Positions 49,230-49,512 of a DNA stretch of 64,000 nt are shown here, one piece after another. Source of the stretch: Nannocystis bainbridge (GTDB taxonomy: Bacteria; Myxococcota_A; Polyangia; Nannocystales; Nannocystaceae). The translations under genes and the position numbers were made by a program. The stretch spans positions 3,008,001 to 3,072,000 of the forward strand of contig NZ_JAQNDL010000001.1 of assembly GCF_028368995.1 (NCBI RefSeq), written 5' to 3'. Each line of letters opens with the position of its first letter. Position 1 is the stretch's first letter. Under the pieces are notes generated by a model that saw nothing but the letters and a program-made list of their open reading frames with translations, ran no database searches and was not told where the DNA came from.

Positions 49230-49300
49230 AGGTCCCGTCGGGATTCGAACCCGAATAACCCGTGTTGCAGACGGGCACCTGGCCGCTCGGACACGGGACC
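49230..49300 (-). tRNA. tRNA-Cys(GCA)
   Basis: Acceptor GGTCCCG/CGGGACC, U73, anticodon arm CCCGT-CTGCAAC-ACGGG, T-arm TCGGG-TTCGAAT-CCCGA; CCA not encoded. Confidence 0.92.
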
Positions 49301-49334
49301 ATGCTCTGCTCCGATCTCTCCCAGTTCTCAAAAG

Positions 49335-49405
49335 AGGTCCCGTCGGGATTCGAACCCGAATAACCCGTGTTGCAGACGGGCACCTGGCCGCTCGGACACG
49401 GGACC
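49335..49405 (-). tRNA. tRNA-Cys(GCA), identical to 49230-49300
   Basis: Same 71-nt cloverleaf. Confidence 0.92.
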
Positions 49406-49441
49406 ATGCTCTGATCTCTCCCCATTCTTTATTTTATAAAA

Positions 49442-49512
49442 AGGTCCCGTCGGGATTCGAACCCGAATAGCTCGAGTTGCAGTCGAGCACCTGGCCGTTC
49501 GGACACGGGACC
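49442..49512 (-). tRNA. tRNA-Cys(GCA), variant
   Basis: Anticodon arm CTCGA-CTGCAAC-TCGAG (compensatory changes); same acceptor and T-arms. Confidence 0.92.

Follow-up and report, generated by a model that had tools for sequence, protein, structure and literature searches.

A tandem array of three tRNA-Cys(GCA) genes in Nannocystis bainbridge that probably represents a second, clade-specific lineage of elongator tRNA-Cys

We analyzed a 64,000-nt stretch of the Nannocystis bainbridge genome (contig NZ_JAQNDL010000001.1, positions 3,008,001 to 3,072,000; hereafter the window), in which an earlier note had described three tandem tRNA-Cys(GCA) genes, two of them identical and the third a variant with compensatory changes in the anticodon stem. 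ARAGORN, Rfam and the sequence itself confirmed this description. ARAGORN placed the three tRNA-Cys(GCA) genes head to tail on the minus strand (49230-49300, 49334-49405 and 49441-49513), and Rfam RF00005 recognized all three (49230-49300, 49335-49405 and 49442-49512) at scores of 52.2-52.4 bits, the gathering score being 29. The array takes up 284 bp, all copies are full-length, and Tandem Repeats Finder reported a 105-nt period with 2.7 copies across it. Copy 1 (49442..49512; 52.4 bits), the promoter-proximal gene, has A15, a CUCGA/UCGAG anticodon stem and a G26-C44 pair, and copy 2 (49335..49405; 52.2 bits) has G15 and a CCCGU/ACGGG anticodon stem. Copy 3 (49230..49300; 52.2 bits), the final gene of the array, is identical to copy 2 over 71/71 nt. 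Six positions distinguish copy 1 from the other two: four in two compensatory anticodon-stem pairs, position 15 (A vs G) and position 44. The spacers, also on the minus strand, are 34-36 nt long. Spacer 1 (49406..49441) is A+T-rich and lies within the 105-nt tandem unit, and spacer 2 (49301..49334) has the motif GAGAGATC.GAGCA in common with it; the G+C content of the spacer region is 0.51-0.54 (49350-49499), compared with 0.715 for the contig.

By direct reading, every trait that had been listed for these genes was found in the sequence, namely U73, the GCA anticodon, U10.U25, C21, the lack of an encoded CCA, the spacers of lower G+C content and the convergence of the array with short open reading frames (ORFs), of which there are four on the plus strand. 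The tRNAs also have G13.A22 and a 4-nt variable loop. Upstream of the trio lies a region (49513..49700, minus strand) that is presumably the promoter and leader of a tRNA operon and is common to a divergent gene for an M61-type peptidase. Short blocks of this region are kept across the six genomes that carry the array (see below), and the rest of the stretch is 49% identical. A perfect 10-nt tandem repeat (6.8 copies, 49653-49720) between the array and the M61 gene is not in the aligned region of the relatives.

The N. bainbridge assembly comprises 11.05 Mb in five contigs and is ~90% complete by marker genes. ARAGORN made 102 tRNA calls in it, some long ones being probably false positives, and four of these are tRNA-Cys: the trio and a single gene at C3:1171397-1171470. 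This gene answers the question, raised in the earlier note, of whether a canonical tRNA-Cys exists elsewhere. It is built differently, with a G10-C25 pair, A13.A22, A21 and a 5-nt variable loop, and scores 67.5 bits. In a comparison sample of 41 genomes from the genus, family and class, its type is present in 39 and is 100% identical in six of them; because of this spread, the C3 gene is, judged by comparison across genomes, the native, vertically inherited tRNA-Cys. Since 39/41 relatives have this type in common, the trio is a second, extra set. Between the trio and the native gene, 44-49 of 71 positions are identical (62-69%), which is no higher than the identity between the trio and unrelated tRNAs of its own genome. 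Weak extra matches in the search of other families for the native tRNA-Cys were tRNA-Phe genes, not a second tRNA-Cys. The missing CCA, which had been remarked on as a peculiarity, is real and not odd: because 75 of the 102 tRNA calls, the native tRNA-Cys among them, were negative in a crude test that looked for CCA in the four terminal bases of each call and six bases of flank, it is ordinary in this genome.

We then determined the distribution of the trio type by DNA search. It is present in 6 of the 41 genomes, all of one genus: N. bainbridge (3 intact copies), G001 (3), G003 (3), G005 (4), G007 (3) and G010 (1). Matches of the trio type were absent from G002, G004, G006, G008 and G009, the five further genomes of the genus, which are smaller or fragmented. 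The seventh match, a weak one in G024, proved to be a different tRNA-Cys inside a tRNA array. In a collection with one genome per species (~185,000 species), the motif of the trio 5' half was found in five records only, all of them Nannocystis: N. exedens DSM 71, N. radixulma, N. pusilla Na p29, N. punicea FL3 and Nannocystis sp. RBIL2. Of these, N. exedens DSM 71 carries a single trio-type gene and N. pusilla carries three.

The location of the array is the same in all six genomes, between the same kinase and M61 peptidase genes. In G001, G005, G007 and G010, the locus reads IgGFc-binding-like protein, sodium:dicarboxylate symporter, 996-aa Ser/Thr kinase, the array, the M61-type peptidase gene divergent from it, hybrid histidine kinase, CAP-domain protein and OmpA-family protein. 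In G003, where a contig end cuts the locus within the kinase gene, the part from kinase to OmpA matches this order. G009 and G006 show synteny for the CAP and histidine-kinase genes, without an M61 gene or a tRNA after them. We rejected the idea that the copies are tDNA integration scars, that is, 3' tRNA fragments around cassettes, because all three are full-length, the spacers measure 34-36 nt and there is no integrase among the neighboring genes scanned. Fragmentary copies are confined to G001, where an insertion produced them.

Next, we aligned the 17 copies of the six genomes (12 of them distinct) on the cloverleaf taken from the ARAGORN drawing. Standard pairs filled 91.3% of pair cells, compared with 87.6% in shuffles (0/500 of which reached the observed value, a figure that is not a probability since the 17 sequences are related) and a maximum of 61.9% when the partners were slid. 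The acceptor, anticodon and T stems were 100% paired. Two pairs of the anticodon stem showed compensatory changes (CG/UA and CG/AU/UA), and every change in the acceptor stem was C to U opposite G, so that a G.U wobble was kept. The T-arm, with a T-loop of the UUCGAAU type (columns 52-58), G18G19 (columns 17-18), the anticodon loop, GCA and U73 were invariant in all 17 copies. The only non-pairs were 13:22, which is G.A in all copies, and 10:25, where ten of the 12 distinct copies have U.U and two N. radixulma copies restore a pair, A-U. This pattern of pairs is what purifying selection on a tRNA would give.

The first copy is nearly identical between N. bainbridge and N. radixulma, and N. exedens, N. 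pusilla and RBIL2 have the same first copy; the downstream copies resemble one another within a genome more than they resemble their counterparts elsewhere. Because of this difference, we infer that the array consists of an old first gene followed by genes that turn over by tandem duplication. Decay is visible in G001 (L013:8030-8330 and the L059:6487 region), where two degenerate copies and one 5'-damaged copy flank three intact ones, and where one copy is truncated after the variable loop, an insertion of ~1.7 kb with inverted repeats at its ends separating it from its remainder.

We also compared the D-arm, which the earlier note had called atypical, with tRNA-Cys of other phyla. A looser motif (the trio D-loop with C21, leaving positions 10, 25 and 26 and the anticodon stem free, plus CUGCAA) gave at least 120 matches. 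Among the matches listed, ARAGORN found a tRNA-Cys with a trio-type D-loop in 67 of the 80 loci fetched; they came from Actinomycetota, Bacteroidota, Chlorobiota, Chloroflexota, Acetobacteraceae and others. The variable loop was 4 nt long in nearly all 67 by eye, and had 3 or 4 bases in 65 of the 67 by the ARAGORN drawing. The 10:25 pair in these 67 was G-C in 38, C-G in 20, A-U in 4, U-A in 1 and U.U in 4, the last four being, by eye, apparently Prevotella, Hallella and Prevotellaceae loci. G13.A22, C21 and a short variable loop thus make up a common tRNA-Cys design, and only U10.U25 is unusual. Accordingly, the word atypical holds for U10.U25, which is rare (4/67 among the matches listed), and does not hold for C21 and G13.A22, which are widespread in other phyla. 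The tRNA-Cys of other phyla with G13.A22, C21 and a 4-nt variable loop are like the trio in D-loop pattern, three-pair D-stem region, U73 and GCA. In nearly all of them, the 10:25 pair is Watson-Crick (63/67) and position 26 is A, whereas the Nannocystis copies mostly have U10.U25 and G26; and, unlike these other holders of the design, the trio coexists with a second tRNA-Cys design in one genome. A further search with a two-anticodon pattern also gave at least 120 matches, and the 80 loci fetched comprised 64 without tRNA-Cys, 14 with one and 2 with a tandem pair, a pattern too unspecific to give a frequency of tandem tRNA-Cys.

The closest tRNA-Cys outside the genus among the matches listed was 58/71 identical and came from an Actinomycetota metagenome-assembled genome; on so short a molecule, this identity does not allow a donor to be named. 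An origin of the trio as a remoulded tRNA-Ser was considered. The tRNA-Ser(GGA) and tRNA-Ser(CGA) of N. bainbridge have a UCC/GGU D-stem identical to that of the trio, and the start of the D-loop is common to them as well. This origin is not favored: tRNA-Ser(CGA), the closest non-Cys tRNA of the genome, is 51/71 identical and the others are 46-50, compared with 58/71 for the tRNA-Cys of other phyla.

The genome encodes one cysteinyl-tRNA synthetase (CysRS), with a standard domain make-up. Weak extra matches to the model were not a second CysRS but five copies of a class I lysyl-tRNA synthetase (LysRS) gene. The main identity elements for CysRS are the GCA anticodon and the U73 discriminator, and tRNAs that are dedicated to the cell wall and are non-proteinogenic lose G18G19 and the standard T-loop, two features that the tRNA elbow and use on the ribosome require. 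The trio has the features expected of an elongator, namely an above-threshold cloverleaf, GCA with U73, and G18G19 with the UUCGAAU-type T-loop.

The trio is not the only accessory-looking group of tRNA genes in the genome. At C2:2556665-2559233 (L199), 23 tRNA genes, none of them for Cys, lie within 2.6 kb. Smaller clusters are found at C2:2356727-2357509 (Leu x5, Tyr, Pro), C3:526095-526398 (Ser x3), C1:1430433-1430676 (Glu-Glu-Asn) and C5:153032-153200 (Ala x2). The nearest other tRNA calls are ~30 kb away on either side of the trio, and the other clusters are at least ~0.5 Mb away or on another contig. The Rfam threshold was passed by 13 tRNAs of the 23-gene array (39-62 bits) and 5 of the seven-gene cluster, at 30-65 bits overall; because only part of these two larger clusters passes, many of their tRNAs are divergent. 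Within the genus sample, long matches to the 23-gene array (75-88% identity) were confined to G001, G003, G005, G007 and G010, so that the array and the trio have the same distribution; ARAGORN gave the same gene order, again without Cys, at the loci of G001 and G005.

A tRNA array unit has been defined, in the text of the survey that introduced it, as at least 20 tRNA genes at a density of at least 2 per kb (Tran et al. 2016, PMC4758250). The 23-gene array falls within this definition, and the trio, with three genes, does not. The same text puts tRNA-Cys among the rarest isotypes in arrays, at ~2%, and its main part does not mention myxobacteria (PMC4758250). Like the array units described there and in mycobacteria (PMC4758250; PMC5966550), the trio is accessory, divergent, dense, lineage-restricted and redundant to the native set; unlike them, it has three genes of a single isotype and lies below the 20-gene definition. 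Our literature search, which left supplementary files outside its scope, found nothing on Nannocystis tRNA-Cys or on myxobacterial tRNA arrays. Taken together, the large array, the small clusters and the Cys trio suggest an almost complete second tRNA set. Such a set would explain why there are ~100 tRNA calls in these genomes (102 here and 107 reported for N. exedens DSM 71 in PMC5658511); 56 tRNAs have been reported for the myxobacterium Sandaracinus.

We therefore weighed what the trio might be for. On the evidence of conservation, synteny and design, it is probably an operon of ordinary elongator tRNA-Cys, belonging to a second, foreign-looking lineage that the large-genome Nannocystis clade has kept and amplified within an accessory tRNA set. 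Since the design is foreign to the myxobacterial relatives and standard in several other phyla, this lineage would either have been acquired horizontally long ago or be an ancient paralogue retained by this clade alone. We infer the steps of its use as follows. The array would be transcribed from the region it has in common with the divergent M61 peptidase gene, and the precursor would be cut into 71-nt tRNAs. CCA would be added post-transcriptionally, as for most tRNAs of the genome. The single CysRS would charge the products via U73 and the GCA anticodon, and the ribosome would use them as extra isodecoders. Unequal crossing-over would shift the copy number, which ranges from 1 to 4.

Tandem operons of a single isoacceptor are known in bacteria, an example being glyVXY, the triple tRNA-Gly operon of E. 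coli. As in operons of that type, the trio consists of near-identical copies arranged head to tail with short spacers, presumably on one transcript, which raises dose simply and lets copy number shift by unequal recombination. Unlike them, the trio belongs to a non-native second lineage that is 62-69% identical to the native gene, which stays single-copy elsewhere in the genome. One genus here keeps two deeply different designs of one tRNA, one native and single-copy, the other foreign-looking, tandem-amplified and stable through speciation. Culturable Nannocystis is a usable model for the purpose of accessory tRNAs, be it dosage, stress back-up or toxin resistance. No new mechanism is opened by this, and the features of these tRNAs that look anomalous are mostly normal across other phyla.

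Several observations weigh against the elongator reading. The 15:48 tertiary pair is unusually variable among the copies (G:G, G:U, A:U and G:C), and the three N. bainbridge copies have C38, compared with A38 in most relatives; C38 in place of A38 could alter modification of A37 through its effect on MiaA recognition. No donor of a horizontal transfer has come to light, and blastn of the array against phage and plasmid collections gave zero matches. Simple scans of the surroundings found no promoter or terminator: a consensus scan of 48150-50100 gave 0 sigma-70-like sites, and the one terminator-like site there, on the minus strand inside a peptide ORF, is no more than shuffles give. The 20 sequencing runs listed as containing the array stretch are all DNA-type metagenomes, none being on record as RNA, and the case for activity of the trio is one of sequence conservation. 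Four tRNA-Cys genes exceed codon demand, so that a role beyond plain dosage is conceivable. Finally, the short peptide genes described below occur only beside the array (5/5 copies in two genomes), which a purely accidental association does not fully explain.

Extra dosage and a back-up function had both been put forward in the earlier note, and an additional, clade-specific set fits either. The rationale then given for dosage, a Cys-rich secretome, is weak, as Cys is the rarest amino acid, accounting for 1.25% of residues across 4,626 long ORFs. Because four tRNA-Cys genes serve so small a share, the back-up function stays a live rival, although an unlikely one. It holds that the trio tRNAs are back-up or decoy isodecoders, conditionally expressed, which along with the other accessory tRNA clusters sustain translation upon damage to the native tRNA, its cleavage by a tRNA-targeting toxin, or its depletion in stress or development. 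Toxins that cleave tRNA-Cys are known, among them a mycobacterial VapC, and a structurally different second lineage under apparent purifying selection beside the native gene, with more genes than codon demand calls for, would suit such a function. So would a distribution that matches that of the divergent 23-gene array, since mycobacterial tRNA array units have been described as a putative anti-defence system (PMC12803027). However, nothing in our data supports conditional expression or nuclease resistance, the anticodon loop, which is the usual target of nucleases, is CUGCAA in both lineages, and no toxin or defence gene flanks the array among the neighbors scanned.

It is improbable that the copies are near-neutral, redundant passengers, unneeded or poorly expressed, that persist through tandem duplication and gene conversion. 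The variation in copy number, the truncated, degenerate and insertion-split copies of G001, and the likeness of copies within a genome, which points to concerted evolution, are all compatible with this idea, as is an Rfam score below that of the native gene (52 vs 67.5 bits). Yet at least one intact copy is present at the same site in 6/6 genomes, while the flanking intergenic DNA has diverged to ~49% column identity, and substitutions in the stems are compensatory or preserve a wobble, with no pair broken outside the D-stem.

The four ORFs that converge on the array encode peptides of 24, 17, 18 and 20 aa (48510-48584, 48710-48763, 48916-48972 and 49033-49095, plus strand), whose membership in the tRNA feature is doubtful. 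The peptides have a basic N-terminus and an NPL-aromatic C-terminus in common, and each gene lies in a repeat unit. A motif of 21 nt containing a palindrome follows ORFs 1, 2 and 4, with three matches in the window compared with 0.01 expected; one of these, at 49166..49186, lies between the final tRNA and the final peptide gene. A terminator role for the motif is unsupported by the fold of the region, as the predicted fold of the 136 nt that follow the array is no more stable than that of shuffled versions (z = -0.04). By a DNA pattern of the common 5' end, peptide genes were found in 2 of 25 genomes, four in N. bainbridge and one in G001, all adjoining the tRNA-Cys array. In G003, G005, G007 and G010, the array comes almost directly after the kinase gene, and the pattern found no peptide gene at the locus or genome-wide. 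None of the five peptide genes contains a Cys codon. The differences among the five are mostly at third codon positions, and they therefore look translated. NCBIfam gave no match for the two peptide ORFs whose length allowed a scan. Two short ORFs with loose similarity are found at C1:1904506 (minus strand) and C1:2380163 (plus strand).

The earlier note had proposed, as one option, that the trio is a dedicated Cys-tRNA donor for these peptides, through PEARL-like addition of Cys or another non-ribosomal use, and it would have given up the link to the peptides if that link were not conserved. It is not: the array is kept in 6/6 genomes and the peptides in 2/6. The peptide genes do converge on the array and are found only there in both genomes, the G001 gene and the shared palindromic motif lie directly beside degenerate tRNA-Cys copies, arranged likewise, and the excess of third-position differences suggests that the peptides are made. 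But the enzymes such a donor would serve were not found. The note had reported that the window lacks a PEARL gene, and the search, widened to the whole genome, again gave 0 matches to the LanB N-terminal (PEARL-type) domain (PF04738), a search that was positive in 4 of 5 control genomes reached from Streptomyces and Actinacidiphila loci and whose built-in controls found nothing. There were also 0 genome-wide matches to the LanB C-terminal domain (PF14028; weaker evidence, as the built-in control was empty and none was added), to CDPS (PF16715; control positive in 1 of 14 reference genomes) and to FemAB (PF02388; control positive in 2 of 14). Because the genome is ~90% complete, the absence of these tRNA-dependent enzyme genes is likely, not proven. 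The trio, moreover, keeps G18G19 and the canonical T-loop like ribosomal tRNAs, and, of the kinase and the M61 peptidase encoded by the flanking genes kept in all six genomes, neither is known to draw on aminoacyl-tRNA. With Cys-free peptides and one CysRS in addition, a dedicated donor is unsupported and very improbable.

Two known systems nonetheless invite comparison. In PEARL systems (TglB and a scaffold peptide), the likeness lies in a possible source of Cys-tRNA beside short peptide genes; unlike them, the Nannocystis genome has no LanB-N-type enzyme that we could find, and the linkage to peptides is seen in 2/6 genomes. No PEARL system is known to require a tRNA of its own. In staphylococci, a non-proteinogenic tRNA-Gly is used by Fem transferases. 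It is like the trio in being an extra, differently built isoacceptor beside a standard one; unlike it, the trio keeps G18G19 and the standard T-loop, and no FemAB was found. That the trio supplies Cys-tRNA to an unrecognized enzyme outside the LanB/PEARL, Fem and CDPS types, which acts on the Cys-free NPL-aromatic peptides, is the least probable of the explanations, at the very edge of what we would consider, and if true would mean that some Nannocystis species carry, in the array plus the peptide genes, a novel type of locus for tRNA-dependent modification of peptides. Because the peptides never occur without the array, their association with it is better read as local origin at the 3' flank of the array; the peptide genes would be a later insertion there and not a functional partner.

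Further observations concern genes near the array or related to the searches above. The 996-aa Ser/Thr kinase (45165-48155, plus strand) is 85-88% identical in relatives over its N-terminal 450 residues; its C-terminal half gave no tblastn match at E < 1e-10 and is fast-evolving or of low complexity. The five copies of the class I LysRS gene (PF01921, 393 bits) lie at C1:4517-4535 kb and C2:3027-3032 kb (L052-L055), in repeats near contig ends; so many copies of a synthetase gene are unusual, and they may belong to the repeats at which the assembly broke. In G024 (12.3 Mb, another genus), the tRNA cluster at C27:170145-173196 (L007) reads Ser, Ile, Val, Cys, Trp, Ala and Ser; its tRNA-Cys is of a third kind, with CCA encoded, and stands in that genome alongside a native tRNA-Cys (L039).

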